A DNA stretch of 64,000 bases from Pseudomonadota bacterium (GTDB taxonomy: Bacteria > Pseudomonadota > Gammaproteobacteria > Steroidobacterales > Woeseiaceae), in NCBI GenBank assembly GCA_039819385.1, contig JBCBSC010000012.1:14371-78370 (forward strand). Reading direction: 5' to 3'. Numbering within the stretch: position 1 is the stretch's first letter; every line of letters begins with the position of its first letter. A model generated the notes under the pieces. That model made no database searches and was not told the DNA's origin. It saw only the letters and a list, made by a program, of their open reading frames with translations. Below, piece after piece: positions 29,438 through 43,591 of this stretch. A program made the position numbers and the translations under genes.

Positions 29438-30376
29438 ATGGACCCGGTAATCTGGTTTTTTCTGCTGGGGGTCCTGGCGGGACTGATGCGCTCCGACCTG
29501 CGCATGCCGAAGGCGGTTTATGAGCTGCTGAGCATGGTGCTGCTGCTCACGATCGGCTTGAAAGGCGGCGTAGAGCTTGCCCAGCAGCCGGTTGGCGGCC
29601 TCGTAGTTCAGGTTCTGGCCGTCGCCTCTATCGGACTTGTCATTCCGCTGGCGGTATTCTCCGCAATCCGCGCGCTGTCGTCCGCCCCGCGCGCGGACGC
29701 CGCTTCGCTGGCGGCGCACTATGGGTCAGTCAGCGTTGCCACCTACGCGGTTGGCGTGTCGTTCCTGGCTACCCGTAACGTGCCGGTCGATGCGCAGCTC
29801 CCGCTGTTTCTCGTCGTTCTGGAGGTTCCGGCGATCATGGTGGGTATCGTGCTCGCCAAAGGCGCCGCGGCGCGCTCGAACTGGGGCGGCGTCATGCACG
29901 AGGTATTCCTCGGCAAGTCGATTGTCCTGCTTATCGGCGGCCTGCTGATCGGCTGGCTGTCGGGTCCCGAAGGCATCGAACCGCTAGAGCCGCTGTTCTT
30001 CGATCTGTTCAAAGGCGTGCTCGCGCTGTTCCTGCTGGAGATGGGGCTCATAGCCGCCAACCAGGCCTCGGGCCTGAAGCGGCGCGCGACGCTCGTAATT
30101 CTGACCGCCATCCTGACCCCGGTTCCCGCGGCCATGCTCGGCATTGGCGTCGGCCATGTAATTGGCCTCAACGTGGGCGGGATGACTCTGCTGGGCGTGC
30201 TCGCGGGTAGCGCATCGTACATTGCCGCGCCCGCGGCGATGCGGATAGCGGTACCCGATGCCAATCCGTCGCTGTCGCTGTCGGCATCGCTTGGCATCAC
30301 GTTTCCGTTTAACATCTTTATCGGCGTTCCGCTGTACTACGGAGCGGCGCAATGGCTTGCTGGCGCAGGAGCATAA
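29438..30376 (+). CDS. Sodium-dependent bicarbonate transporter family permease (SbtA/DUF897-like)
   Basis: About 10-TM protein of typical size, beginning MDPVIWFFLLGVLAGLMRSDLRMP, with an internal repeat. Confidence 0.78.
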   Translation: MDPVIWFFLLGVLAGLMRSDLRMPKAVYELLSMVLLLTIGLKGGVELAQQPVGGLVVQVLAVASIGLVIPLAVFSAIRALSSAPRADAASLAAHYGSVSVATYAVGVSFLATRNVPVDAQLPLFLVVLEVPAIMVGIVLAKGAAARSNWGGVMHEVFLGKSIVLLIGGLLIGWLSGPEGIEPLEPLFFDLFKGVLALFLLEMGLIAANQASGLKRRATLVILTAILTPVPAAMLGIGVGHVIGLNVGGMTLLGVLAGSASYIAAPAAMRIAVPDANPSLSLSASLGITFPFNIFIGVPLYYGAAQWLAGAGA

Positions 30377-30379
30377 AGC

Positions 30380-30682
30380 ATGGAAATCACCGAAAGAAAA
30401 TTGCTGACGATCGTGGCCGAATCGGTACTTGAACCCCGCCTGATCGAAGTTGTCGATAAAATGGGTGCAGTCGGCTACACGATTACCGACGCACGCGGCT
30501 CCGGGAGCCGCGGCGCGCGCAGCGCCGGCTGGACACACAACGGCAATATCCGCTTCGAAGTGATCTGCACCGGTGAGATCGCCGACAGGATTGCGGCGCA
30601 CCTTCGCGAACACTATTACGCGAACTACGCCATGGTGTTGTTTATCACGGACGTGGGTGTGATGCGCCCCGACAAATTTTGA
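30380..30682 (+). CDS. P-II-like signalling protein (SbtB-like partner)
   Basis: 100 aa. KLLTIVAESVLEPRLIEVVDKMGAVGYTITDARGSGSRG beta-alpha-beta with a T-loop-like segment. Starts 3 nt after the permease. Confidence 0.78.
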   Translation: MEITERKLLTIVAESVLEPRLIEVVDKMGAVGYTITDARGSGSRGARSAGWTHNGNIRFEVICTGEIADRIAAHLREHYYANYAMVLFITDVGVMRPDKF

Positions 30683-30719
30683 CGATCAAGTCTTGGCGGA
30701 CAAGCTTAGGTAGGGTTTT

Positions 30720-31184
30720 ATGATTCGTGCACTCGTCGACAAGATCAGCCAGGCCGTGCAGGCCACGGACGGGCAGGAGAACGAAACGCGCGAGGATGTG
30801 CTGCGGCTCTGCACCGCCGTGCTCATGGTGGAGGTTGCGCGGGCGGATTACGATTTCGACGAATCCGAGTTCGATCTGCTGCTCGAGCTCATAAAGGTGC
30901 ACTTCGGCCTGTCCGCCGAGGACGCGACGCAGCTCGCCAACGAGGCGGCCGAGGTGGCGGAGGATTCCGTTTCCCTGCACGAATTCACCCAGCGCCTGCA
31001 TAAGCACTTGAGCGAGCGGGAGAAGGCGGAGGTCGTGTCGCTGCTGTGGCAGGTGGCCTACGCGGACGGCAGTCTCGACAAATTCGAGGATTCCATCGTT
31101 CTCAAGATCAGCGACCTGCTGTACGTCAGCCGCGGTAAAGTGATGCAGTTGAAGCACGATGCCGAGGTCGCCAAGTCGGCTTAG
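30720..31184 (+). CDS. TerB-family (tellurite-resistance-like) protein
   Basis: The VLMVEVARADYDFDESEFDLL...LLWQVAYADGSLDKFEDSIV repeat is typical of the TerB/DjlA N-terminal domain. Confidence 0.72.
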   Translation: MIRALVDKISQAVQATDGQENETREDVLRLCTAVLMVEVARADYDFDESEFDLLLELIKVHFGLSAEDATQLANEAAEVAEDSVSLHEFTQRLHKHLSEREKAEVVSLLWQVAYADGSLDKFEDSIVLKISDLLYVSRGKVMQLKHDAEVAKSA

Positions 31185-31301
31185 CGTTGCTCCGCAATCG
31201 CCGCAGCGGTGTTTGATACCGCCCGCCCAAACGAACGCAGCCGTGGTCGTGGACACGCGGAAGTCGAAAAAATCCTGTGTCGACAAGTCCTGGGGCCAGG
31301 C

Positions 31302-31329
31302 AAAAAAAAGGCCGGTCAAAAGACCGGCC
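31302..31329 (-). terminator. Rho-independent terminator of the minus-strand three-gene operon
   Basis: Minus strand reads GGCCGGTC-TTTT-GACCGGCC followed by a run of eight T. Confidence 0.7.
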
Positions 31330-31387
31330 TCGAGGAGTAGGCCGCAAACCGAGGGGGAGTGGTTCGCGGCTGTCTGAGCGATAAGCG

Positions 31388-33004
31388 TTACACGGGGTTG
31401 CCTATCGTGCCGTTACAAATCGGCGTAAACGCCGTCAGTGAGTCGAGCATCTGAGCGTTGCCGAGCCCGTTGTTCGGGAACAGGGTGCTGAACAGACCCA
31501 CCTCGTTGTGCAGAGCCATGTAGTTGAGTATCGCCGTGTTCACGAGCAGCGGCACGTTGTTGGCGGCGGGGGTCGCCGCGCGCTGCACGGACCCGTCGGC
31601 ACTCATGTAACCGATCTGCTGATGAATGGCCTGCTCTTCGGGCGTGGCGCCTATGATGGTAGGTCGCCGCGACGGGTTGTAGACCAGGAAGAACGAGCCG
31701 GCCGTGGACGAGTTGTCCGACGACCATTCGCCTTTACCGCGGCCTTCCGCCGAGTTGTCGATCGTGCCGTTGGAAGACAGCGAGCCGTCGGAGAACACGT
31801 ACAGCATCAGCGGTACGCCGCGCACGGCCGCATACTCGAGGCACGCGCCCATGCACTGTCCGGCGCGGAAGTCTTTGACTTCGCCTTCGGCGCGGGCGCC
31901 GCCGTGGTAGTCGTAGCCGCCCATCTCGATCGTCGCCGCGCCGGCGTAACCGTTCATGATGAGCTTCATGATCGCCGCCGTCTTCTGGAATTCGCGGCCG
32001 TCGCGTCCGCCGCTGTTGAATTCCGCGGTCGTGAAGATGCCGCCGGCATCCGCGACGATCTCCGGATCTTCAGCCGGGTCGATCGGCACGCCGCCGAAGC
32101 GGTCCGCAATGTCTGCGGCCTTCAGATAGCCGCAATTGACGGCCTGTTTGATCGCGGCGTCGTTGGCAATGTTGGTGTTGACGCTGCCGACCTTGGCTTC
32201 GCTGAGGCGGTAAATCGATTCCATGACCGCCGTGGCATCGTTCTTCGACAGGATGCCGACGAGTTCGCCCGTGTCCACGAGGTTGGTCACGTCGGACGGA
32301 CGGTCGACCTTGGTCGGGCGCAGTTCGGGATCGTAGAGCATCATCGGCAGCATCGAGTTGCCGCCGGAATCCGTATTCTCGGAGCCAGCGAGCGTCAGGA
32401 TCGAACCGGCCGCGCCGGCCCGGGCAATGCCGTACATTGGATTGTGCGGATTGTTACCCGTGTCGTTGTCGGAACGTGCCGGGATGATCGCGCCGTTGAT
32501 GTTGGCGGCGGTCGTCGCCGACACCTTGCTCATGATGCCGCGGCGGAATGCGCTGTCCAGGTGGAAGCCCAGCCCCAGGTCGAAGTTGGCGTACGGTTCG
32601 CCGAGAACGGGGTCGTTCAGGCTCGGCACCATGTCGCCGGGCAGTCCCATTTTCTCGTAACCGCCCGTACTCAGAAAGTCGAGCTGGCCGCCTTCGCCGC
32701 CAACCAGCACGTTCGAGTTCGCGATATTCGCGCCGCCCGCCAGATCGAAGGCAATGAACGGTATCTTGCCGGCGCCGTTGGTCGCGATCTCGCAGGGGTT
32801 TTGCAGCTGTCCCGCAAGGTCCGGCGAGAGGGCCGCCAGCGCGTCGCGCGGCGCCCCCATCAGTCCGGCAAGGCTGACCGCGCTGGTGTACGCCGCGCCG
32901 CTCATGAAACCCTGAGCGACAAACTGGCGGCGCGTGACAGGACGCGGATGATCTCCATGCAGCTGGGGAGCATCGAAGTCCCGAGCGTTTCGTCTCTTAG
33001 CCAT
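31388..33004 (-). CDS. Tat-exported protein, distantly DUF1501 / alkaline-phosphatase-superfamily-like
   Basis: Twin-arginine motif TRRQFV (RR codons at 32927..32932) followed by an h-region. FDLAGGANIAN and GGYDYHGG...LYVFSDG resemble DUF1501 metal-site segments. Family assignment is tentative. Confidence 0.8.
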   Translation of the reverse strand: MAKRRNARDFDAPQLHGDHPRPVTRRQFVAQGFMSGAAYTSAVSLAGLMGAPRDALAALSPDLAGQLQNPCEIATNGAGKIPFIAFDLAGGANIANSNVLVGGEGGQLDFLSTGGYEKMGLPGDMVPSLNDPVLGEPYANFDLGLGFHLDSAFRRGIMSKVSATTAANINGAIIPARSDNDTGNNPHNPMYGIARAGAAGSILTLAGSENTDSGGNSMLPMMLYDPELRPTKVDRPSDVTNLVDTGELVGILSKNDATAVMESIYRLSEAKVGSVNTNIANDAAIKQAVNCGYLKAADIADRFGGVPIDPAEDPEIVADAGGIFTTAEFNSGGRDGREFQKTAAIMKLIMNGYAGAATIEMGGYDYHGGARAEGEVKDFRAGQCMGACLEYAAVRGVPLMLYVFSDGSLSSNGTIDNSAEGRGKGEWSSDNSSTAGSFFLVYNPSRRPTIIGATPEEQAIHQQIGYMSADGSVQRAATPAANNVPLLVNTAILNYMALHNEVGLFSTLFPNNGLGNAQMLDSLTAFTPICNGTIGNPV

Positions 33005-33033
33005 AGTCTGTATTTCCTTATTCGTCCTGTCGA

Positions 33034-35565
33034 TTACTGTACGAGGGTCGCGGCGCTGCCGAGCGTGGCGGCGCAGACACCCTTGGAGATAGCTTCGGTG
33101 CTCGAACCACCCGCGATCAGGCGATCGATCAGGTTGTCCGGGCGGTTACCGTCACCGTTGGCCGATGCAAGTTCGCTGTAGACCGTCATGAACGACGGCT
33201 GGCTTGCGAGCTGCGGACCGCTGCGGCTGTTGCCGACGATGCCGGCGATCAGCGGATCGACGAACAGGTCGCGGTTGGCGCCGCCGAAGGCCGTCCCTGG
33301 CGCGGCGCCGAAGTTGAAGCCCGGGAAGTAGCTGGCGCGTGCCGTCGTATCGTTGATCAGCGCGTTGCAGTACTCGATGGCGAGCTGCGCGACGGCGACC
33401 TGATGTGACGACAGGAAGGTGTTGACGTCCTCTACCGCGGGCAGCGACTGGCGCAGCTCCTGGTAGGTCATGTCGACTGCCATGCTGTTGGGATCGACCC
33501 CCGTAACCGCCGCAAAGCTCGCGTTGATCTCATCGAAGGTGCGGAAGCCAATGTGCGACGAGGGATCGAGATCGGTCGGTGAAATCACCAGTACCGGGTC
33601 CTCTGTACGCGCATAGCTTTGGCCGGCGAGCTGATCGAAAGTCAGGAAGAACTCGTCCTCCTGCGGACCTTTCTCGAGCGGCAGCACCGCGCCCAGCACC
33701 GAGAGCTGCTGGCCGAGGTCGCCGAACAGCGTGGCATCGAGCGTCGTGTTGAGCGTGGCGTAGGTCTGACCGACGGGTGCTTCCGCGCCGTTCAGTCCGA
33801 TGCGCATGCCGTCGAGCGGAATGCCGGTCGGCGACGAGCCGTCGAGCGTCACGAAGTGCGGACGGTCGAACAGATACGCGTAAGAGTCGAACTGCTGCAC
33901 CTCGAAGAGGATGTAGGACGACTGCGGCGCGGCCTGCAGGATCTCTGAAATGTCGAACAGCAGGAAGAATTTCTCGCCCACGCCGACGTCGAAGTTCTGC
34001 GTGATCTGTTCCTGGGTCAGCGCGGAGTTGTGAACGGCGACCAGGCGAATCGTGCCTTCCCAGGGCGCATCGCCCGAAGCTTCGTTGCCGAGGACAAACG
34101 CGAAGGTGTCCTGCCAGTCGGCGATCGTGCCGCCGGCCGTCTGGTCGACGTTGCTGACCAGCTCGCCGTTGACGTAGATCCGGCGACCTTCGAGCGGATC
34201 GTAGGTGGCGACGACGTGCTGCAAGGTGGCCTGCAGTACTTCGTCGGCCGAAGGCGTCGACAGTGCCGGATCGCCGTTCAGGCCGGTTTCAGTGTGCCGC
34301 AGACGGAAGTCGTAATCGTACAGGGTTTGCTGCAGCGTGAAGTTGCGTGCTTCCGGGCCCGCCGAGTAGCTTACGATACGAGCCATTTCCTGCGTAACGT
34401 TGGCGGGGATCACCCAGGCCTCGATCGAGAACAGGCCGTTCGACTGTTGGATGAAGTCGAAGAGCTTCTTGCTGCCGGTCGTCGAACCCTGGGCCTTGCC
34501 GCCATTGAGCGTAATGCCCCAGCCGCCGAACCATTCGACTTCCGGAGACAGGTTCAGGTCCAGCGCCGGTGCAACACCCGAGGTATCCGCGGCGACGCGG
34601 ATGTCCGGGTCTTCGCTGCCGGATTTGAATTCCCACAGGGCAATCTGATCGTTTTCGTAGCGGTTGCCGCCCGATGCGACCGTGCCGTCGATGAGCCTGA
34701 GCGCCTTACTGACGACGAGGCTGGGATCGACCGTTGTGGGTACGATGCCGCTCGCGAACTGCTCGATCGCGGCCTGCATTGTGTTTGCGGAGTTCTCGCA
34801 GCTACCGCCCCAGCAGTTGTGGAATTCGTTGCGCAGGCGGATGACCAGGCGCGAAGCGGCCGGGTCGTCGAGATCGATACGTGGCTGGGCGGCCTCGTAG
34901 GCACTGGCCACGTCCGGGTCGGCCATGTACGGCTGGCGCGGATCTTCCGATTCGGAGCTGTGACACTCGGAGCAGTAGGGCACGAGGATCGGCTGATGGA
35001 TCAGCGTTGCGAACGCCGAAGAATCGTCCGGGAAGTTCTTGCTCGCGCCCGGGTCTTTGGGCTCCGGCGCCGTCAGCGTAATCGTGCGGCCGCCGCCGGC
35101 AATGTCGCCGGCCCAGTTCTGTATCCAGCGCGTCATGAGCGACGTGCAAACGGACAGGTCGGGCGACCAGCAGTTGTGGCCTCCGCCGACCTTGGCAACG
35201 ACGCGAGATTGCGCCGGCTGGGTCAGGTCAACGACCGTAAGCGCTTCGTCATACGCCAGGTTGACGTCGTCGAAGCGGACGAACAGCGGCGGCTGTGCCG
35301 TCGTTTCGTTATGGCAGTCGCCACAGCTTCCCTGCTCGCGTACGTCGGTCCAGAACGTGTTCTGGAATTTCTGCACGTCGCCGTCGCGGGCGCCCGGTCC
35401 GGAATAAATCGGTCCGCCGCCACCGCCGCCGGTCGGGGGCGCCGGGTTGTCGACCGTACCCGCTCCGCCGCCACAGGCTGCAAGAACGAAGCTTGCAAAC
35501 GCGGCCAGCGAGGCGCCTCTCAGACGCAGACTTCCCTGCAAGGCATTTTCCATTGCGTTTCTCAT
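33034..35565 (-). CDS. Large lipoprotein with two CxxCH haem motifs, two HNCW motifs and a LamG-like central domain
   Basis: Lipobox FVLAAC followed by a Gly/Pro linker. CGDCH at 35311..35325 and CSECH at 34960..34974. LamG-like segment (FSIEAWVIPAN...HVVATYDPLEGRRIYVNGELV). Strong RBS GGGAGCAGGA. Confidence 0.85.
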   Translation of the reverse strand: MRNAMENALQGSLRLRGASLAAFASFVLAACGGGAGTVDNPAPPTGGGGGGPIYSGPGARDGDVQKFQNTFWTDVREQGSCGDCHNETTAQPPLFVRFDDVNLAYDEALTVVDLTQPAQSRVVAKVGGGHNCWSPDLSVCTSLMTRWIQNWAGDIAGGGRTITLTAPEPKDPGASKNFPDDSSAFATLIHQPILVPYCSECHSSESEDPRQPYMADPDVASAYEAAQPRIDLDDPAASRLVIRLRNEFHNCWGGSCENSANTMQAAIEQFASGIVPTTVDPSLVVSKALRLIDGTVASGGNRYENDQIALWEFKSGSEDPDIRVAADTSGVAPALDLNLSPEVEWFGGWGITLNGGKAQGSTTGSKKLFDFIQQSNGLFSIEAWVIPANVTQEMARIVSYSAGPEARNFTLQQTLYDYDFRLRHTETGLNGDPALSTPSADEVLQATLQHVVATYDPLEGRRIYVNGELVSNVDQTAGGTIADWQDTFAFVLGNEASGDAPWEGTIRLVAVHNSALTQEQITQNFDVGVGEKFFLLFDISEILQAAPQSSYILFEVQQFDSYAYLFDRPHFVTLDGSSPTGIPLDGMRIGLNGAEAPVGQTYATLNTTLDATLFGDLGQQLSVLGAVLPLEKGPQEDEFFLTFDQLAGQSYARTEDPVLVISPTDLDPSSHIGFRTFDEINASFAAVTGVDPNSMAVDMTYQELRQSLPAVEDVNTFLSSHQVAVAQLAIEYCNALINDTTARASYFPGFNFGAAPGTAFGGANRDLFVDPLIAGIVGNSRSGPQLASQPSFMTVYSELASANGDGNRPDNLIDRLIAGGSSTEAISKGVCAATLGSAATLVQ

Positions 35566-35576
35566 TATCCTGCTCC

Positions 35577-36785
35577 CTAGTCGCCCATGCAGTGAACGGC
35601 CGTATCAGCAAAAACCTGCTTCATGCTGTAGCCCGTCGTGCGGAAGGTGTTGATGATCTGGTCGACAGCCGTGCGGTCGGTCTGGTCCTCGGGGTCGCGC
35701 AGACAAACGGCTTTGAAGACCTTCCTGACCTGGCAGGAAGCGAATGCGTGCGAATTGCCGAGCTCTTCACCAAGCGTCTTGGCGCCCTGGCCCTGCCCCG
35801 GAAGACCCGGGTCGAAGCCGAGATACGAGTTCTGGCCAATCCGCCAGTAGTTCTCCCAGCTATCGTCCGGCGTGCGGAAACCCTGCGGGAAGTTCAGATC
35901 GTTGTTGAAGTACTTCGGCTGCACGACACCCTGGGTGTACTGGATCGAGCCTGCGCCTTCGTCGTAGTTGTAATAGGCAAACGCCTGCGCCATCGGGTCC
36001 ATGCCCGTGTGGCAGCCCACGCAGTTGTTCAGGAACAGGCGGCTGTCACCGCCCGGACTGCGGGAGACGTCCTGGCGGATGCGATCCGGCGGCAGCTTGG
36101 GATCGTGCATTTGTTCGAGGTCGTTGCACATGTGATTCAGCAGCGTGAAGCGGAACATCGCGCGGTTGGTGCCCGCGACAAAAAAGGCTTCGGCCGCAGC
36201 GCGCGAAGTCATCACGCCGGCCGTGGCCGTGGAGGGCAGGCCGTTGACGGAGGACTGCGTCGTGCTCACAAGGTCGGTGTACAGATTGACGTTGTCGGCT
36301 TCGAGCTGTTCGTAGTGATTGTTGTTGTTGGCCGCCGGTGCCGCTGCAACAACCCCTGGGCTGCCGACGTACTGAAGATCGGCTGAGAGCAGCGTGTTGA
36401 ACGGCACGTCGTCGCGGACCATACCAATGACCGTGGCAATGTAGTCGTTAAGCGGTACGAACACCGACTGATCGCGGTTGGTCCACGGTGCCGCGAAGTT
36501 CTTTAACGTCACATTGTAGAAGTTGACGTTTTCCATCGCCTTATTGGCCGCAGCGGCCGGATCGCCATCGATAGCAATGAAATCCTCCATCTGCTGCAGA
36601 ATCGTCTCGGAGGGCGGCACGCCCGCGAGCCTGTCGTGGATCCGTTTGGCCTGCTCGCGCGGTCCCGCGACGGCGGGAGCCGCTATTGCAACAGCCAGTA
36701 CCGTGGCGATCAGCGATCGCGTAACGGTCGTTTTGGCTGCCGCTATGCCGGCCGCATTTGTTTTCATCCATGTCATGTTTTTCAT
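35577..36785 (-). CDS. Secreted mono-haem protein, DUF1588-like (planctomycete cytochrome-domain type)
   Basis: Signal peptide ending AVAG. CVGCH-TGMDPMAQAF at 36009..36023 resembles the DUF1588 CxxCH-x2-DP-x-G signature. Confidence 0.82.
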   Translation of the reverse strand: MKNMTWMKTNAAGIAAAKTTVTRSLIATVLAVAIAAPAVAGPREQAKRIHDRLAGVPPSETILQQMEDFIAIDGDPAAAANKAMENVNFYNVTLKNFAAPWTNRDQSVFVPLNDYIATVIGMVRDDVPFNTLLSADLQYVGSPGVVAAAPAANNNNHYEQLEADNVNLYTDLVSTTQSSVNGLPSTATAGVMTSRAAAEAFFVAGTNRAMFRFTLLNHMCNDLEQMHDPKLPPDRIRQDVSRSPGGDSRLFLNNCVGCHTGMDPMAQAFAYYNYDEGAGSIQYTQGVVQPKYFNNDLNFPQGFRTPDDSWENYWRIGQNSYLGFDPGLPGQGQGAKTLGEELGNSHAFASCQVRKVFKAVCLRDPEDQTDRTAVDQIINTFRTTGYSMKQVFADTAVHCMGD

Positions 36786-37152
36786 AACGATCCTGCTCAC
36801 GAACTGGTTCGTCCCCAACGATTCGCCGGCCGCTCAAGCGGCTGGCCCGTTTGACGCAAGTTGTAAGGAGTGATTCAGAAATCCCGCGAGTCCACTCGGT
36901 TGCTGGTCTCGTTTCCATCCGGGCTACTGCACATTCCCGACAACTAAATCGTCGTCTGCCGAATTGCGTTTGTCGTCGACACTTGTCATCGACATTGCCG
37001 TTCGGCGTGACCGCATGCTTAATCTCTTGAAGCAGCGCTCAAAGACTGTGGACATCCTTGTGTCTCTTGGTTGCCGGTTTCTTCGCCAACGGCCTCCTGG
37101 CCTTAAGAAGATTCCAGCTGCATGCATCCTGCCAATTCGAGTTCCGGATTGC

Positions 37153-37168
37153 CGTGAATGCATTCACA
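37153..37168. promoter_or_regulatory. CRP-family-like palindrome CGTGA-ATGCAT-TCACA
   Basis: Contains the 14-bp perfect palindrome GTGAATGCATTCAC. Matches TGTGA-N6-TCACA at 9 of 10 core positions. Lies in the 1.2-kb spacer. Confidence 0.35.
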
Positions 37169-38018
37169 GTCCTTGTTCGACGAGCGTTATGCGGTCCTTG
37201 CGCGGCCAGACAGAACGCTGCGGTCCCTCTGGATAAAGCAAGTGCTGTGCCAGTCTCCCGAGCGCGGCCTGAATAAGCCAAAATTTCATTTAATATCAAC
37301 AACTTGATGCTGGATGTCCGATGTGGCAAAAAGTCGCCATATGTCAAGTTGCTGTCGGCGCTTTCGTACATCGCCAGCGAGCACCGGTCGTAAGCTACTG
37401 ATTATTAAAGGAGCTGCAACTGTCTCCGAAGGGAGACAGAGTGACCATCCGGATTGGCACCTGTAGTAACAGCGGATTCCCCGCCGAACTTAAACCAGCT
37501 TATGAAGCGGCGTTCGGGGGAACGCAGAAAAGTGCGCGTCGCCTGCGCGAAATACACACAGCTCGAAACGTCCGCTCACGGAAAACGCGGTGCGTTCTTT
37601 CACTGTAGTGACGCGACCGCCGGGTATCGCGGCCGCACGAGCTAAGGCCCCTGCAGCACGAAGCAAAGCACAAATCGTCACTTTCTGACCCGGTCTGTCG
37701 CGGATTTTCGACATTACATCGCCCATTAACAGTCTTTTATACTCGCGCGCAACCGGAGCACGAATACGGCCGTGCAGCCAGATTTCGATTCCGGTAAACG
37801 CGAACGCGGTGGCGCTTGTGTGACGCCGTACCGATCTGCGGTTTGTGATCGCGTTAACGGTACGGCGCTCCTCTCGCGTCCACTATTGCACTTAACAAAA
37901 GGTAGGACTGTGCGCACCCGACACCCGAACCCCGAGAGAACGGAGACTCCCGAGGTAAGACATGGTCGCGCTGCGTCTTCGACATGAACAGACCGCCGTT
38001 TGATCCGAGGTATCAGTT

Positions 38019-40751
38019 ATGAACAGAGCATCGCGACAGAGACAGGAAGGATCCTTCGTCCGCGCCCGGCGTTTCGCCGGTGTGCTCTCCGTGTCCGTCC
38101 TGCTGGCGGCCTGTGACGGCGCCAATCAGGGCGTGCAGATCGGTGACGGCCAGACACCCGATCCCGTGGTCATCGATTTTCCGATCGCGTACGTTCGCGC
38201 ACCGTTGCCGCTCGACGACGACGGAGTGTTCGAGCAGCAGGATCTTCGCGAACAGATTACCTTTGACGTAGGCGGCCAGCTTTTTGTCCGCGATCGCGCA
38301 TCCCCCAGTGCGGAACCGCTAAACGTTACGGAAAGCGTAATCGGCGACATGGGCGCCGTGCGCGATGTCGAAATCGCCTACGACGGCAGCGCCGTTTTGT
38401 TTGCCATGCGCGGCCCGTTCGATCCCAATCTCGACGAGGAAGACCAGCCGACCTGGAACCTCTGGGAGTACACGTTCGAGGATGCCGCGCTACGGCGGAT
38501 AATTCCGTCCGACCTGACTGCCGAAATCGGTCACGACATCATGCCGAAGTATCTGCCCGACGGCCGGATCGTGTTCTCGTCGACGCGGCAGGTGCGTTCG
38601 CGGGCGATTCTGCTCGACGAAGGCAAGAGCGGTTTCGGCGCCATGGACGAGGATCGCAACGAAGAGGCGTTCAACCTGCACGTGATCGATCGCGACGGGT
38701 CCGGTCTGGAACAGATCTCCTTCAACCAGAGCCACGATCTCGATCCCTCGATCCTCGCCAACGGCCAGATTATCTACAGCCGCTGGGATCACGCGCCCGG
38801 CAACGACGTCGTCAATTTGTACCGCATGAACCCCGACGGCTCGGACAACGAGCTGCTGTACGGTAACGAAAGCCACGCGACCGGCACGAACGGCGAGATC
38901 ATTCAGTTTACCCAGCCGCGTCAACTCGAGGACGGGCGGATCATGTCGCTCGTACGGCCGTTTACCAACACGGAAGGCGGCGGCGATATCTTTGTCATCG
39001 ATACGCCTCAGTACGTCGAGATTACCCAGCCGCTCAAGGACAATATTGGCGTGCTGACCGGCCCAGGTCAGGAACCCGGTACGACGCTGGACGTGTCGAC
39101 GCTGGAAGGCGTGCCTTCCGAGGGCGGCCGCTACAGCTCGGTGTATCCGATTCAGGACGGTACGGGGCGCCTGCTGGTGAGCTGGAGTCAGTGCCGCGTG
39201 CAGGACGTCGTCGATCCGGCCATCGATCCGCCACCGCCGGTGAATATTTATCCCTGCACCGACGAACGGCTTGCGGACGCTGTACTCTACGAGCCGGCGC
39301 AGCCGTTGTACGGGCTCTGGATCTACGATCCGCGCGACAACACGCAGCTTCCCGTTGTGCCCGGCGAAGAAGGCTTCATGTTCACCGAAGTCGTGTCCGC
39401 CGACCCGCGCCCCGCGCCGCCCGGAATACCCGACCGCCTCAACGATTTCCCGTTCGACCCCTTGCTGCGCGAGGCGGGCGAGGCGGTACTCAACATACGC
39501 AACGTTTACGATTTCAACGGCGGCCTGGTCGCCAACGTCGAGGCGCTGCGCGATCCGGCCCAGACGCCCGCGGCGGACCGTCCCGCGCGCTTCCTGCGCA
39601 TCGAGAAACCCGTATCGCTGCCGGACGAAGACCTGCTGGATTTCGACGATACCGCGTTTGGCGTATCGCAGCAGAACGGCATGCGGGAAACGGTCGGCTA
39701 CGCCATGATCGAGCCTGACGGTTCTGTCGTCACCAAGGTGCCCGCGAACGTGGCGCTCGCGATCAGCGTTCTCGACGGTAACGGCAAGCGCATCACTCAG
39801 CGGCACAACAACTGGATTTCCCTGACGCCCGGGCAGGAACTCAAATGCGCGGGCTGCCACATTGCGAATCAGGGTGTTTCGCACGGTCGCCGCGACGCGT
39901 TCGAGTCGGCGTACGCCGGCGCTCAGACCACGGGCGGCAGCTTCGCCAACACGGACCCCAAGTGGTTTATCGGCGAGGTCGGCGAAACGATGGCGGAGGT
40001 TCGCGCGCGCGTAAGCTGCACGGCGGAAGACTGTTCCGCCATCGAGCCCACTATGGCCATCGACTTCGAGGACGTCTGGTCGGCGGATCCGCTAATCAGA
40101 GCCGCGAACGAGTCTTTCGACTACAATTACGACGACGTGCAGGAGCTGCCGACCGGCTCGCCGACCAATGCGGTCTGCCCGACCGTCACGGGACTGTCGG
40201 TTCGCGACTGGCAGTCGCAGTGCCGTAACATCATCAACTACGAGACGGTGATTCATCCCATGTGGAGTCAGGAGCGGCTGGTCTTCGACGACATGGGTAA
40301 TCCCGTGCTGGACGGCAACGGCGTTCAGCTCAGCAACAATTGCCAGAACTGCCATACGCCGCTCGACGTCGTGAACGCCGTTGTGCGCGTGCCGGCGGGG
40401 CAGCTCGATCTGGCCGATGGCCCGTCCCCCGACGAACCGATGCACTTCAACGCTTATCGCGAGCTGCTGGCCGGCGATAATTTTCAGGAAGTCGTGAACG
40501 GCGCTCTCGTGGACGCGCAGCAGGTCGTCGGTCAGGACGCTGACGGCAACGACATACTCGACGTGATACCGATTGCGGCGCCCGCCAGTCCGGCCGGCGC
40601 GCTGGCATCCGCCGATTTCTTCAGTCGTTTTGAGGATCCGAACGATCCTCATTACGAAATCTTGACGGCTACCGAGCGAGCATTAATCGCCGAATGGTTG
40701 GATTTAGGTGCCCAGTACTACAACAATCCTTACGACGCGCCGCTCAACTGA
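38019..40751 (+). CDS. Lipoprotein with a TolB/PD40-like beta-propeller and two CxxCH haem motifs (possibly HzsA-related)
   Basis: Lipobox VLLAAC. PD40-like blades (YDGSAVLFAMRG, LPDGRIVFSSTR, NGQIIYSRWDH). CAGCH at 39846..39860 and CQNCH at 40341..40355. Confidence 0.85.
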   Translation: MNRASRQRQEGSFVRARRFAGVLSVSVLLAACDGANQGVQIGDGQTPDPVVIDFPIAYVRAPLPLDDDGVFEQQDLREQITFDVGGQLFVRDRASPSAEPLNVTESVIGDMGAVRDVEIAYDGSAVLFAMRGPFDPNLDEEDQPTWNLWEYTFEDAALRRIIPSDLTAEIGHDIMPKYLPDGRIVFSSTRQVRSRAILLDEGKSGFGAMDEDRNEEAFNLHVIDRDGSGLEQISFNQSHDLDPSILANGQIIYSRWDHAPGNDVVNLYRMNPDGSDNELLYGNESHATGTNGEIIQFTQPRQLEDGRIMSLVRPFTNTEGGGDIFVIDTPQYVEITQPLKDNIGVLTGPGQEPGTTLDVSTLEGVPSEGGRYSSVYPIQDGTGRLLVSWSQCRVQDVVDPAIDPPPPVNIYPCTDERLADAVLYEPAQPLYGLWIYDPRDNTQLPVVPGEEGFMFTEVVSADPRPAPPGIPDRLNDFPFDPLLREAGEAVLNIRNVYDFNGGLVANVEALRDPAQTPAADRPARFLRIEKPVSLPDEDLLDFDDTAFGVSQQNGMRETVGYAMIEPDGSVVTKVPANVALAISVLDGNGKRITQRHNNWISLTPGQELKCAGCHIANQGVSHGRRDAFESAYAGAQTTGGSFANTDPKWFIGEVGETMAEVRARVSCTAEDCSAIEPTMAIDFEDVWSADPLIRAANESFDYNYDDVQELPTGSPTNAVCPTVTGLSVRDWQSQCRNIINYETVIHPMWSQERLVFDDMGNPVLDGNGVQLSNNCQNCHTPLDVVNAVVRVPAGQLDLADGPSPDEPMHFNAYRELLAGDNFQEVVNGALVDAQQVVGQDADGNDILDVIPIAAPASPAGALASADFFSRFEDPNDPHYEILTATERALIAEWLDLGAQYYNNPYDAPLN

Positions 40752-41514
40752 CAACCAGGGTTTTGTATCCCGGTGGTGGTTGTGCCTGATCGCTGTTGCA
40801 CTTGTACAGGCATTCTGGCCGGGACAAGCATTTGCCGCCAAGGTATATCGAACCGTGGCGGTTGCGGACCCGTATCTCGAGATGCATACGGGTCCCGGCC
40901 GCGGCTACCCTATTTTCCACGTCGTGGACCGCGGTGAAACCGTTCAGATCATTCGCCGCAAGACGGACTGGTTCAAGGTGCTCGCACCGGACGGTCGCGA
41001 GGGCTGGGTCGCAAAAGCGCAGATGGAGCTGACGCTCGAGGACGACGGCTCGGTGCTCGATTTCGAAGTTGTCGACAAAGACGACTTTACCAACGCCAAA
41101 TGGGAAATGGGCGTGCTGGCCGGCGATTTCGGCGGCGCGAACATCGTGTCGCTGTACGGCGGCTACTCGCTCACCCCGAATGTTTCGGTCGAGGCATGGG
41201 GTTCACAGATTTTGGGAAATTTTTCGAACGGTTGGATGGGCAGTGTTAACGTCGTCCATGAGGCCTTTCCGGATTGGCGGTTTTCACCCTTTTTCACCCT
41301 GGGCGCCGGAGTCATACGCACCGAGCCCAAGTCGACCATCGTTCAGGGTGAGGATCGCAACGATCAGATTGGCCATGTCGGAGCAGGTTTCCGCGTCTAC
41401 GCAGCGCGGCGATTCCTGATCCGGGCCGAATACAAGAGCTACGTGGTGTTCACGAGCCGGGACGACAACGAGGAAGTGGAAGAATGGAAAGTCGGTTTCG
41501 CATTCTTTTTCTGA
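40708..41514 (+). CDS. SH3-domain protein fused to an outer-membrane beta-barrel
   Basis: Signal peptide, SH3_3-like segment (GETVQIIRRKTDWFKVLAPDGREGWV), then amphipathic beta strands ending in KVGFAFFF (terminal Phe). GTG 40708 overlaps the upstream gene; TTG 40780 is an alternative start. Confidence 0.72.
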   Translation: MPSTTTILTTRRSTDNQGFVSRWWLCLIAVALVQAFWPGQAFAAKVYRTVAVADPYLEMHTGPGRGYPIFHVVDRGETVQIIRRKTDWFKVLAPDGREGWVAKAQMELTLEDDGSVLDFEVVDKDDFTNAKWEMGVLAGDFGGANIVSLYGGYSLTPNVSVEAWGSQILGNFSNGWMGSVNVVHEAFPDWRFSPFFTLGAGVIRTEPKSTIVQGEDRNDQIGHVGAGFRVYAARRFLIRAEYKSYVVFTSRDDNEEVEEWKVGFAFFF

Positions 41515-42164
41515 TAGTCGCGTTTACGCTGCTGTCCGGATGTGCTGCGACCAAGAACCTGTTTGGTTTTGGCCGCAACGAGGCGCCGCCACCCAGCGCG
41601 GAGCCTCCCGGTCAGGTTGTCGATCCGGAGGTTGAGCGCCGTGAGATCAAGGAGGCGAAAATCGACTCCGAGAACTTCGAGATCGGTGCGTTCGCCGGCA
41701 TTTTTGCGATCGAGGATTTTGGCTCCAACGTCGTCTACGGGGCGCGCATTGCCTATCACGTAACGGAGGGCTTCTTCGTCGAGGGCACCGTCGGCACGAC
41801 CGAGGGGGACCTGACCAGTTTCGAGATCCTGTCGGGCGATGCGAGGCTGCTGACGGACGACGAACGCACGCTAACCTATTACAACCTGAATCTCGGCTAC
41901 AACATATTTCCCGGCGAAGTCTTCCTGGGCGAGGGACGGGCGTTCAATACGAACCTGTATCTGATCGCCGGCCTGGGCTCTACCCGGTTTGCCGGCGACG
42001 ATCGCTTTACCGTCAACTTCGGCGCCGGGTACCGCTTCCTGCTATCCGACACCATTGCGATTCATATCGATTTTCGCGATCACCTGTTCGACATCGATCT
42101 CCTCGGCGAGGAGAAAACCGTACACAACCTGGAAGGCCACCTTGGCCTTACCGTGTTTTTCTGA
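41484..42164 (+). CDS. Outer-membrane beta-barrel lipoprotein
   Basis: Lipobox TLLSGC. Alternating beta-strand pattern with the C-terminal signature GHLGLTVFF. Confidence 0.75.
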   Translation: MESRFRILFLIVAFTLLSGCAATKNLFGFGRNEAPPPSAEPPGQVVDPEVERREIKEAKIDSENFEIGAFAGIFAIEDFGSNVVYGARIAYHVTEGFFVEGTVGTTEGDLTSFEILSGDARLLTDDERTLTYYNLNLGYNIFPGEVFLGEGRAFNTNLYLIAGLGSTRFAGDDRFTVNFGAGYRFLLSDTIAIHIDFRDHLFDIDLLGEEKTVHNLEGHLGLTVFF

Positions 42165-42179
42165 CAGAGGTTTTGGGCC

Positions 42180-42416
42180 ATGCGCAACACGACCGTATGC
42201 AAACTGCTCTCCGTTCTGCTGGTAGCCGGTGCCGTATCCGGCTGCAGCAACATTGAGCCCTGGGTGAAACCGTACGAACGCGACCGTCTCGCGGACCCGA
42301 TCATGGCGCTCGACGGCGATCCCGTTTCCAGTTCTTACATGCAGCACGTTTACGAGTCGCGCGAGGGCGCCCGTGGCGGCGAAGGCGCAGCCGGAGGCGG
42401 CTGCGGCTGTAACTGA
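42180..42416 (+). CDS. DUF4266 small lipoprotein
   Basis: Lipobox AVSGC, PWVKPYERDRLADPIM, and the family-typical C-terminus GGGCGCN. Confidence 0.8.
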   Translation: MRNTTVCKLLSVLLVAGAVSGCSNIEPWVKPYERDRLADPIMALDGDPVSSSYMQHVYESREGARGGEGAAGGGCGCN

Positions 42417-42448
42417 AGCGATCGGTCCAGGCACGGAGTAAGACAAGC

Positions 42449-43591
42449 ATGTTATTGAAGCGCAAGCTCCAGTTTCTTACGCTGATCGGCACCTTGCTGG
42501 CGGGGAACGCGTTCGCCAGCGTTCTGCCCGACGACCGGTCCGATGTGCTGTATCACCGCTATGAGGGCGGTGGCGTTCTGATCGACGGGCCTTCGGTTCT
42601 GGTGCGAAAGAAAGTCGGTAAGAACGTGTCGGTGGTGGGCAACTACTATATCGACTACGTAAGCTCGGCATCCATCGACGTCGTCACGACAGCCAGTCCT
42701 TACAACGAGGAGCGCACGCAGTGGTCGCTGGGCGTCGATTATCTGCGCGGCAACACCACCCTTAGAGCAAACTACGTGAGTTCGGTCGAGTCCGACTACG
42801 ACGCATCGACCGCGGCGTTCTCCGTCAGTCAGGATATGTTCGGCCAGCTCACAACGCTGACGCTGAGTTACGGTTACGGCGACGATGTCGTAGGCCGCTC
42901 CGACGATCCGACCTTCGAGCGCTTCGTGAAGCGCCAGCAGTACAGTCTGGGCATCACCCAGATTCTGACCAAGAACATGATCGCCGCATTGAACGTGCAA
43001 ACGACGACCGAGGAAGGGTATCTCAACAACCCTTATCGTCAGGTACGCTTTCTGGACCCGACGGCCGATATCGGCTACAGCTACGAGGGTGAGCTGTATC
43101 CCAATACGCGCACGGCGAATGCCGTCGGTATCCGGGCACGCTACTTTCTGCCGTATCGCGCCGCGCTGGAGGCGGAATACCGCTTTTTCGTGGACACCTG
43201 GGACATCGAGTCCAACACAATTTCGCTGACCTACATCCAGCCCTGGCGTAACTTCACCTTCAAGGTGAAAGGGCGCTACCACGATCAGACCGGGGCACAT
43301 TTTTACCGCGATCTGTTCTCGCGCTCCGAGGCGACGAACTTCCGCGGCCGCGACAAGGAGCTCAGTCCGCTGCAAAGCTATGTCGTGACGCTGAAAGGCA
43401 GCTACAAGTTCATCGACGAGAACAAAGGCTGGGGCATGTTCAAGAAGGCCACCGTGACCGCGTCGATCGATATGATGCGCTTCGAGTACGAAGACTTCCG
43501 GGATCTGCGCTTCGCGGCGCCGGTCGGCCAGGAGCCGCTATATCAGCTGGACGCCAACGTCGTACAGGTGTTCGTCTCTTTCTGGTATTAG
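42449..43591 (+). CDS. DUF3570 outer-membrane beta-barrel protein
   Basis: Signal peptide, LYHRYEGGGVLIDGPS start typical of DUF3570, beta-strand periodicity, aromatic C-terminus FVSFWY. It follows DUF4266, as this pair usually does. Confidence 0.8.
   Translation: MLLKRKLQFLTLIGTLLAGNAFASVLPDDRSDVLYHRYEGGGVLIDGPSVLVRKKVGKNVSVVGNYYIDYVSSASIDVVTTASPYNEERTQWSLGVDYLRGNTTLRANYVSSVESDYDASTAAFSVSQDMFGQLTTLTLSYGYGDDVVGRSDDPTFERFVKRQQYSLGITQILTKNMIAALNVQTTTEEGYLNNPYRQVRFLDPTADIGYSYEGELYPNTRTANAVGIRARYFLPYRAALEAEYRFFVDTWDIESNTISLTYIQPWRNFTFKVKGRYHDQTGAHFYRDLFSRSEATNFRGRDKELSPLQSYVVTLKGSYKFIDENKGWGMFKKATVTASIDMMRFEYEDFRDLRFAAPVGQEPLYQLDANVVQVFVSFWY

Follow-up and report, generated by a model that had tools for sequence, protein, structure and literature searches.

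The described systems closest to the locus reported here are the porin-cytochrome conduits of the MtrCAB and PioAB type, the alpha subunit of hydrazine synthase (HZS), the exported PSCyt/PSD cytochromes with their DUF1501 or DUF1552 partners, and the clusters known as DsbD systems. Of the two partner families, DUF1501 belongs to the alkaline-phosphatase clan. The function of the PSCyt/PSD-type pairs is unknown (PMC5615132), as is that of the genes described here. DsbD systems combine ApbE, DUF3570, thioredoxin-like, DUF4266 and DsbD proteins; according to Meheust et al. (2021, eLife; PMC8238504) their function is unknown as well, they are taken to be extracytoplasmic electron-transfer modules, and DUF3570 proteins are reported to be flavinylated by ApbE on experimental evidence. 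Here, we describe a gene cluster in a 64,000-nucleotide stretch of DNA from a Pseudomonadota bacterium of the family Woeseiaceae (contig JBCBSC010000012.1, positions 14,371 to 78,370 of the forward strand). This whole stretch is referred to as the window, and coordinates are those of the window unless another record is named. The cluster consists of a minus-strand triad, genes A, B and C, and of a plus-strand divergent operon, genes N1 to N4. It proved to be a conserved unit of seven genes, and its triad may form the core of an envelope redox system. The features of the triad are as follows.

36785..35577, minus strand: gene A, open reading frame (ORF) of 402 amino acids (aa) from ATG; mono-haem protein, Sec-exported
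36009..36023, minus strand: CVGCH haem-c motif of A (aa 255-259), inside CxxCHxxMDP; read by translation, kept in 66/66 orthologues
35565..33034, minus strand: gene B, ORF of 843 aa; lipoprotein
35311..35325, minus strand: CGDCH, haem motif 1 of B (aa 81); by translation
35167..35178, minus strand: HNCW motif 1 of B (aa 130-133), 49 aa past CGDCH, with a second Cys nearby; by translation
34960..34974, minus strand: CSECH, haem motif 2 of B (aa 198); by translation
34810..34821, minus strand: HNCW motif 2 of B (aa 249-252); by translation
34003..34443, minus strand: LamG (Laminin_G_3) domain of B (aa 375-521); Pfam PF13385, 77.5 bits against a threshold of 27.6, E = 1.5e-21
33004..31388, minus strand: gene C, ORF of 538 aa; exported by the twin-arginine translocation (Tat) pathway
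32918..32935, minus strand: twin-arginine motif TRRQFV of C; by translation and alignment
31331..31308, minus strand: intrinsic terminator past gene C, GAGGCCGGTC-TTTT-GACCGGCCTT then T6, forming a GC-rich hairpin of 10 bp with a T-run after it

A sequence-only reading of this DNA had proposed an exported three-gene operon at this position, and inspection of the ORFs, gaps and hairpin bore out its three minus-strand ORFs, their close spacing, their ribosome-binding sites and the terminator. Genes A and B are separated by 11 nt (ggagcaggata, which holds GGAG/AGGA), and B and C by 29 nt containing AAGGAA. The longest ORF of gene A begins earlier, at TTG 36818; read from ATG, the product is identical to the NCBI protein P0121 of a metagenome-assembled genome (MAG) labelled 'Pseudomonadota bacterium'. 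Translation also returned each of the export signals that had been named, namely a Sec signal peptide ending AVAG in A, the lipobox FVLAAC in B and the Tat motif of C, and the coordinates given for the three CxxCH motifs were exact, as was the call of two HNCW motifs in B. The CxxCH, HNCW and RR motifs of the triad are more than chance occurrences and are kept across orthologues. An Rfam scan of 30500-38500 gave only sub-threshold, terminator-like matches. Gene content, motifs and export signals are direct observations, and the same is true of the synteny, the homology of A and the promoter element described below.

In a genome scan with one genome per GTDB species, C is encoded in at least 591 species-level genomes, which does away with the notion that the cluster is a rare one-off. 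All of the best 80 loci are labelled Gammaproteobacteria or less specifically (Pseudomonadota, 'uncultured bacterium'), and their hosts include Woeseiaceae, Alteromonadaceae, Cellvibrionaceae, Kangiellaceae, Sedimenticola, Azotimanducaceae and Lentisalinibacter; one member of the C family is annotated from a Bdellovibrionota MAG. Among loci whose upstream flank is 4.2 kb or longer, the order A, B, C is kept in 63/63 from genomes and 42/42 from metagenomes, so that profiling of gene neighbourhoods, which the sequence-only reading had proposed as a check, shows the three genes to co-occur. N1 lies divergently upstream of A in 60/60 genome loci, followed by N2 and N3; most loci with a flank long enough to include it also show a fragment of N4 at their edge. 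An outer-membrane module at 38019-43591, earlier noted as a neighbor of the triad, therefore belongs with it. Given the conservation of the triad together with N1 to N4, and flanks outside these seven genes that are not conserved, the unit is delimited to 31388-43591, seven genes in two divergent operons. The three-gene operon as first proposed is thus genuine as a triad and too small as a unit.

Variants of the triad on metagenome contigs, which supplied more distant members, indicate which of its parts persist. In a split-B variant (L094-L100, L111 and L135; GC 34-59%) gene A is followed by a gene of ~245 aa that encodes just the C-terminal domain of B, then by C, and then by a protein of ~450 aa that has one or two CxxCH...HNCW modules without LamG. 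On high-GC contigs (L104, L106, L110, L113 and L118; GC 68-74%) B is without its first haem module. Genes A and C, along with the C-terminal domain of B, persist across these variants. One low-GC contig with split B, L096, carries genes for an extracytoplasmic function (ECF) sigma factor and a putative anti-sigma factor upstream, and the gene for lipoprotein signal peptidase (LspA, signal peptidase II) downstream.

The divergent operon contains the following features.

38019..40751, plus strand: N1, lipoprotein of 910 aa with PD40/TolB-type propeller repeats (sub-threshold) and a hydrazine-synthase-alpha middle domain
39846-39860, plus strand: CAGCH of N1, CxxCH motif
40341-40355, plus strand: CQNCH of N1, CxxCH motif
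40708..41514, plus strand: N2, SH3 domain and small outer-membrane beta-barrel
41484..42164, plus strand: N3, lipoprotein with an OMP_myx_plus beta-barrel domain (TIGR04565)
42449..43591, plus strand: N4, DUF3570, 115.7 bits against a threshold of 25

The middle domain of N1 matches 5c2v_A with E = 1.5e-8 and the Pfam family HZS_alpha with E = 4.5e-13, and both CxxCH motifs of N1 are conserved across all orthologues. With one in A, two in B and two in N1, the system has five CxxCH motifs that are strictly conserved in orthologues. The lipobox of N1 (window 38019-38120) reads LLAAC and is followed at position +2 by Asp (CDG), whereas the orthologue consensus at this position is Gly. In Escherichia coli, Asp at +2 of a lipoprotein is an inner-membrane retention signal, and the localization of N1 may therefore differ between species. 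N3 and N4 are separated by a gap of 285 nt (42165-42448), which is the site of a TlpA-like redoxin gene in most relatives outside the Woeseiaceae; no remnant of a redoxin was detected in this gap by tblastn.

Outside the Woeseiaceae the cluster recurrently lies among redox genes. In five high-GC loci (the contigs with the shortened B given above) the genes for ApbE, DUF3570, DUF4266, Redoxin and DsbD stand divergent from A-B-C, an arrangement that was checked with Pfam on L104, and the DUF3570 proteins of these loci have two canonical [S/T]GA[S/T] flavinylation motifs in 4/5 cases and one in L118. In Alteromonas sp. A079, whose genome is complete, genes for a TlpA/AhpC-type redoxin, an outer-membrane protein, an SH3/outer-membrane protein and an HZS-like protein are divergent from A, B (with LamG) and C, and a convergent ApbE gene is located directly past C. 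Overall, a redoxin gene is present upstream in 21/28 genome loci from outside the Woeseiaceae and in 20/23 metagenome loci, and ApbE is found less than 3 kb downstream of C in 6/35 and 20/41, respectively. In the window DUF4266 and DsbD are absent in cis, and neither an ApbE gene nor a sigma-54 activator gene was found among the ORFs scanned. A related observation comes from canonical DUF1549/1553-DUF1501 and DUF1592-DUF1552 pairs on plasmids (Saccharobesus, Sphingobium), three of which are followed by cytochrome c and cytochrome b561/b6-type genes (L083 8091-9319, L089 7408-8519 and L092 6344-7497), hinting that canonical PSCyt-partner pairs, too, may connect to membrane electron transfer.

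For the comparison of A, B and C with known families we used as references real plasmid-record genes of the DUF1592, DUF1553, DUF1501 and DUF1552 types, verified by annotation and Pfam; the DUF1501 and DUF1552 baits that retrieved them were consensus-like sequences and served no other purpose. In Pfam, A matches PSD2 (PF07624, DUF1585) at 19.9 bits against a threshold of 25.8 (E = 6e-4) and PSCyt3 (PF07627, DUF1588) at 13.1 bits against 27 (E = 0.12), both sub-threshold, and some A orthologues carry a precomputed PF07624 match. Residues 253-395 of A align with positions 1082-1192, the end of PSCyt3 and PSD2, of a Pfam-verified DUF1592 protein (hhalign probability 91.9%, E = 7e-7). Judged by this alignment, the C-terminal ~140 aa of A are a remote homologue of PSCyt3(end)-PSD2, and the description of the first protein as DUF1588-like holds in the sense of a remote PSCyt3/PSD2 (DUF1588/DUF1585) relative (hhalign 92%), though Pfam scores stay below threshold. 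The N-terminal ~220 aa matched no known family, with an hhalign probability of 0.1% for aa 28-252 against the DUF1592-type set, and no Pfam match to PSD3, PSD5 or PSD4 was obtained in A. Among orthologues drawn from 80 genomes, which underlie the CxxCH and HNCW counts, A has one CxxCH per protein in 66/66. Sequence searches of the Protein Data Bank (PDB) with A, B and a canonical DUF1592 protein yielded nothing useful.

B contains an internal duplication of ~90 aa, with copies at aa ~63-154 and ~181-274 (BLASTP E = 2e-10; hhalign 98.5%). Each copy has a CxxCH, then HNCW ~50 aa on, and then a second Cys; two CxxCH are present in 69/69 orthologues and both HNCW motifs in 64/69. The His of HNCW is probably the distal haem ligand, which would make these bis-His haems. 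Comparison of the haem modules with the PSCyt1 region gave an hhalign probability of only 14-29%, a likeness at the level of motifs. The LamG-like module seen in the sequence-only reading is indeed a Laminin_G_3 domain, and it is dispensable in some lineages, since loci with split B do without it. At the C-terminus of B (aa ~660-843) there is a conserved domain of no known family; neither it nor the N-terminal domain of A was matched by hhalign to the DUF1592 and DUF1553 sets or to each other.

C matched nothing in Pfam and NCBIfam, with no relevant match among 61 diverse members of its family, and nothing in the PDB with either a single sequence or a profile. An exhaustive search puts the C family at 1,291 clusters at 50% identity (E < 1e-3), and in a word-indexed search 7,831 clusters (90% identity) were scored among 8,000 candidates. 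Across the 120 closest relatives listed, identity to C is 76-94%, and those with a host name are from Woeseiaceae or Gammaproteobacteria MAGs. Named homologues are labelled 'hypothetical' or 'general secretion pathway protein GspF' (e.g. P0063, P0101 and P0116); the GspF label has no sequence support and is therefore likely to be a propagated misannotation. A search of plasmids with C by tblastn gave no match. In the 61-member alignment (28-55% identity) the RR pair of the Tat signal is invariant, and invariant down to 28% identity along with RR are C71, G90-G91, D181, D365, H367 (in GGYDYH), D406-G407 and D430, whereas D87 is invariant only among closer relatives.

Two family assignments for C were rejected. 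For DUF1501 (PF07394) there was no Pfam match at E up to 10 and an hhalign probability of 8%; for DUF1552 (PF07586, HXXSHH) there was no profile match and a probability of 6%. In both cases, relaxed settings included, only the Tat signal was aligned, for which reason membership was rejected, whereas a control comparison of DUF1501 with DUF1552 reached 94%. The earlier view of C as DUF1501- or DUF1552-like is thereby refuted. A first AlphaFold model of C, built from close homologues only, was poor (predicted local distance difference test score, pLDDT, 45) and was replaced by a confident AlphaFold2 model from a diverse alignment with pLDDT 84.5 and a predicted template modelling (TM) score, pTM, of 0.82. 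Foldseek comparison of this model with the PDB gave weak matches (best E = 5e-3, TM 0.14-0.27), all top 50 of which are members of the alkaline-phosphatase superfamily, including alkaline phosphatase, sulfatases, cofactor-independent phosphoglycerate mutase, ENPP6 and MCR-1. The poor first model, built from a different alignment, gave a similar enrichment. In the alkaline-phosphatase superfamily the metal ligands sit at the C-terminal ends of core strands; D87, D181, D365/H367, D406 and D430 of C, placed along the sequence, each come after a predicted core strand. C is without the sulfatase motif CxPxR, and its candidate nucleophile, T182, is not conserved. A phosphatase/sulfatase-like fold for C, as first suggested, is thus reasonable and unproven: the top 50 Foldseek matches all come from that superfamily, but they are weak.

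The intergenic region between A and N1 spans 1.2 kb and contains the following elements.

37252..37237, minus strand: perfect sigma-54 (-24/-12) element TGGCACAGCACTTGCT, TGGCAC-N5-TTGCT, in the sense of A and 452-467 nt ahead of its start codon
37353..37439, minus strand: conserved upstream block, with CTGTCTCC-cttc-GGAGACAG (37420-37439), AATCAGTAGCTTA resembling a site for integration host factor (IHF), and TGT-N12-ACA (37353-37370)

The sigma-54 element is the only match to the consensus in the 64-kb window, where 0.06 would be expected. The same element is present in the A sense in 28/32 Woeseiaceae-type loci and never in the N1 sense, and the remaining 28 loci gave no match to the strict pattern. 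It is predicted to be a sigma-54 promoter that serves A-B-C in Woeseiaceae. The conserved palindromes upstream of it, CTGTC-N10-GACAG and TGT-N12-ACA, probably represent enhancer sites for a sigma-54 activator. The distance from the promoter to the start of the longest A ORF varies widely between loci, from about 50 to 470 nt. Further conserved non-coding islands are located at ~37149-37173 and at ~37837-37869, the latter 150-180 nt upstream of N1. Within the long leader of A there is an ORF of 110 aa (37039-37371, minus strand), for which translated searches showed patchy, frame-inconsistent conservation, and it is therefore probably not a gene.

Other genes around the unit are unrelated to it. 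On one side, at 29438-30682 on the plus strand, a gene for an SbtA-type Na+/bicarbonate transporter is followed directly by a PII-like (SbtB-type) gene, and a TerB-domain gene and a LysR regulator lie beside this pair. On the other flank are LemA and DUF2207.

Taken together, we tentatively favour, at somewhat less than an even chance, the explanation that A-B-C forms the core of an envelope enzyme system that is conserved and carries out redox chemistry. Since the ApbE, TlpA-like redoxin, DUF4266 and DsbD genes beside the triad in relatives amount to the published flavin-based module, an envelope redox role, one of the options raised in the sequence-only reading, is favoured by these recurrent neighbours. 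In such a system C would be exported in folded form via Tat and would act as a catalytic or substrate-holding metalloprotein, with its Asp and His residues (D181, D365, H367, D406 and D430, plus D87) positioned after the core beta-strands of an alpha/beta fold similar to that of alkaline phosphatase. A, with one haem c, and lipoprotein B, with two, would dock on C and carry electrons, and the LamG domain of B, where present, may bind a bulky or surface-bound substrate. N1, as a second di-haem lipoprotein, and the outer-membrane barrels, DUF3570 protein N4 included, would give the haems access to a source or sink of electrons; in relatives a thiol/flavin relay fed by DsbD could bring reducing power from the cytoplasm. 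That haem and metal are bound, that a complex forms, which way the electrons flow and what chemistry takes place are all predictions of this scheme. A bolder version, in which A-B-C is the founding, genetically tractable case of a new class of extracytoplasmic redox metalloenzyme, an alkaline-phosphatase-fold Tat protein wired by c-type haems to a flavinylated DUF3570 barrel and a DsbD thiol relay, strikes us as doubtful.

Several observations weigh against an envelope redox enzyme. The positions of the flavinylation motifs in N4 (42653-42697) read DYVSSAS and DVVTTAS and not the canonical [S/T]GA[S/T]. The same SSAS/TTAS variant is conserved even in clusters that encode ApbE, and it consequently speaks neither for nor against flavinylation of N4. 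In Woeseiaceae loci, the window included, ApbE or a redoxin was found in the cluster in 0/37 and 0/29, respectively. Five haems are too few for a wire across the outer membrane. Proteins of the CcmG/ResA type have an established role in keeping the CxxCH cysteines of apocytochromes reduced for maturation, and the TlpA-like redoxin and DsbD could serve only this purpose and have no part in catalysis. Finally, proteins with the alkaline-phosphatase fold are classically hydrolases or transferases and not redox enzymes, and the assignment of C to this fold is itself weak, given the E value and TM scores of its best structural matches.

An alternative we regard as unlikely is that the cluster processes a glycan or ester, with LamG binding a polysaccharide or other polymer, C acting as a sulfatase/phosphatase-like hydrolase and the cytochromes being accessory, in an oxidative or sensing role. 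The LamG domain of B, the sulfatases, alkaline phosphatases and phosphoethanolamine transferases among the structural matches of C, and the presence of polysaccharide degraders (Alteromonas, Paraglaciecola, Microbulbifer and Gilvimarinus) among the hosts are in keeping with it, and it would parallel the carbohydrate role that He et al. (2017; PMC5615132) suggested for Verrucomicrobia PSCyt genes with fusions to carbohydrate-binding modules or LamG. However, LamG is lost in split-B lineages and one haem module in another, while A, the B C-terminal domain and C persist; in the annotated neighbourhoods (the window, L065, L096 and L104) there are no genes for sugar transporters, glycoside hydrolases or TonB-dependent receptors; the genes that recur beside the triad encode redox proteins; and C lacks the CxPxR motif and a conserved T182. 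Less probable again is an outer-membrane conduit of the porin-cytochrome kind for the redox chemistry of iron, manganese or another extracellular donor or acceptor, in which C would bind or handle metal. Two haem lipoproteins and three barrel-type proteins would suit a conduit, as would the sediment habitat of the Woeseiaceae hosts, the Asp-rich invariant site in C and the iron transporters that Meheust et al. report from some DUF3570 clusters (PMC8238504). This is countered by a total of five haems with no deca-haem wire, the small size of barrels N2 and N3, the lack of iron transporter or siderophore genes in the clusters examined, and the fact that the cluster is also common in oxic-water heterotrophs.

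We give slightly less credence still to a role in envelope maintenance or stress, in which a haem and thiol relay (DsbD, TlpA-like redoxin, DUF4266 and DUF3570) would repair or detoxify oxidised components or reactive species and C would act on a damaged lipid or glycan head group. Such a role could account for the links to DsbD, a TlpA/AhpC-type redoxin and DUF4266, for the ECF sigma/anti-sigma pair and LspA that flank the low-GC variant, and for the lipid-A and teichoic-acid head-group transferases (MCR-1, EptC and LtaS) among the structural matches of C. Yet the Woeseiaceae operon has predicted sigma-54 and not ECF control, C, a soluble protein exported by Tat, has no counterpart of the membrane domain found in EptA/LtaS-type enzymes, and the structural similarity is weak.

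The value of the cluster lies in its abundance, in its presence in marine genera already in culture and in the bridge it makes between two open problems. Its hosts include some of the most abundant bacteria of marine sediments, yet all of its products are labelled 'hypothetical' or misnamed GspF. It connects two unexplained gene sets: on one side the PSCyt/PSD cytochromes of planctomycetes and the Tat proteins paired with them, on the other the flavinylation clusters of DUF3570, ApbE and DsbD. Cultured host genera are Alteromonas, Microbulbifer, Glaciecola and Gilvimarinus; if the cluster is single-copy there, genetics could settle its function for the first time. Should the idea of a new enzyme class be true, it would also show the role of the expanded PSCyt/PSD and DUF1501/DUF1552 pairs of Planctomycetes and Verrucomicrobia.

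No functional study or description of the triad was found in literature on the DUF families, PSCyt, HzsA-related proteins and DUF4266, nor any mention of it in the part of Meheust et al. drawn on here, which agrees with the earlier description of an exported, co-transcribed haem and LamG operon without an assigned function. The Pfam search proposed alongside that description does not place the triad in well-characterised enzyme families, and the closest kinds themselves have no assigned function. Among these, the PSCyt3/PSD (DUF1592-type) and DUF1552 pairs resemble the triad in that an exported CxxCH protein is followed in the operon by a partner with a Tat signal. Homology is limited to the stretch of A that aligns with PSCyt3(end)-PSD2, whereas A has no PSD3, PSD5 or PSD4 and stays below Pfam thresholds; moreover, B is directly downstream of A and always between A and C, C is not DUF1552, and the triad is tied to DUF3570 and outer-membrane genes. 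With the PSCyt1/PSCyt2-PSD1 (DUF1549/DUF1553) and DUF1501 pairs the haem modules of B share the PSCyt1 pattern 'F..(V/I).P(I/L)L...C..CH ... P..S.L', LamG insertions are also known in that family, and the partner likewise has a Tat signal. C gives weak matches to the same alkaline-phosphatase fold as DUF1501, but the hhalign probability is the 8% given above, and no DUF1549 or DUF1553 domains were detected.

The remaining parallels concern the whole unit. With the DsbD/DUF3570/ApbE clusters the window shares DUF3570 in the form of N4, but it is without ApbE, redoxin, DUF4266 and DsbD in cis and its motifs are SSAS and TTAS; the complete five-gene module stands beside A-B-C in high-GC relatives, and many gammaproteobacterial versions have ApbE and a redoxin. 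N1 shares with hydrazine synthase alpha (PDB 5C2V) the haem-binding middle domain, two CxxCH motifs and propeller repeats, whereas its score of 57 bits falls short of the 800 bits required for the hydrazine_alpha equivalog, beta and gamma subunits are absent and the hosts are aerobic. Catalytic residues are missing from HZS-alpha homologues outside anammox bacteria (PMC12758564), and on these two grounds, score and residues, hydrazine synthesis by N1 is ruled out. As in porin-cytochrome conduits, genes for lipoprotein and periplasmic c-type cytochromes occur alongside those for outer-membrane barrels, but here the cytochromes are mono- or di-haem (at most two CxxCH per protein) and not deca-haem, and a Tat metalloprotein is added; no Pfam match of the cluster proteins pointed to Mtr, and this likeness is one of gene content and not of direct comparison with Mtr. 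Set against the PSCyt/PSD pairs and the DsbD systems, what is new is the partner family C, the obligatory third subunit B, the HZS-alpha-like lipoprotein and the fixed seven-gene layout.

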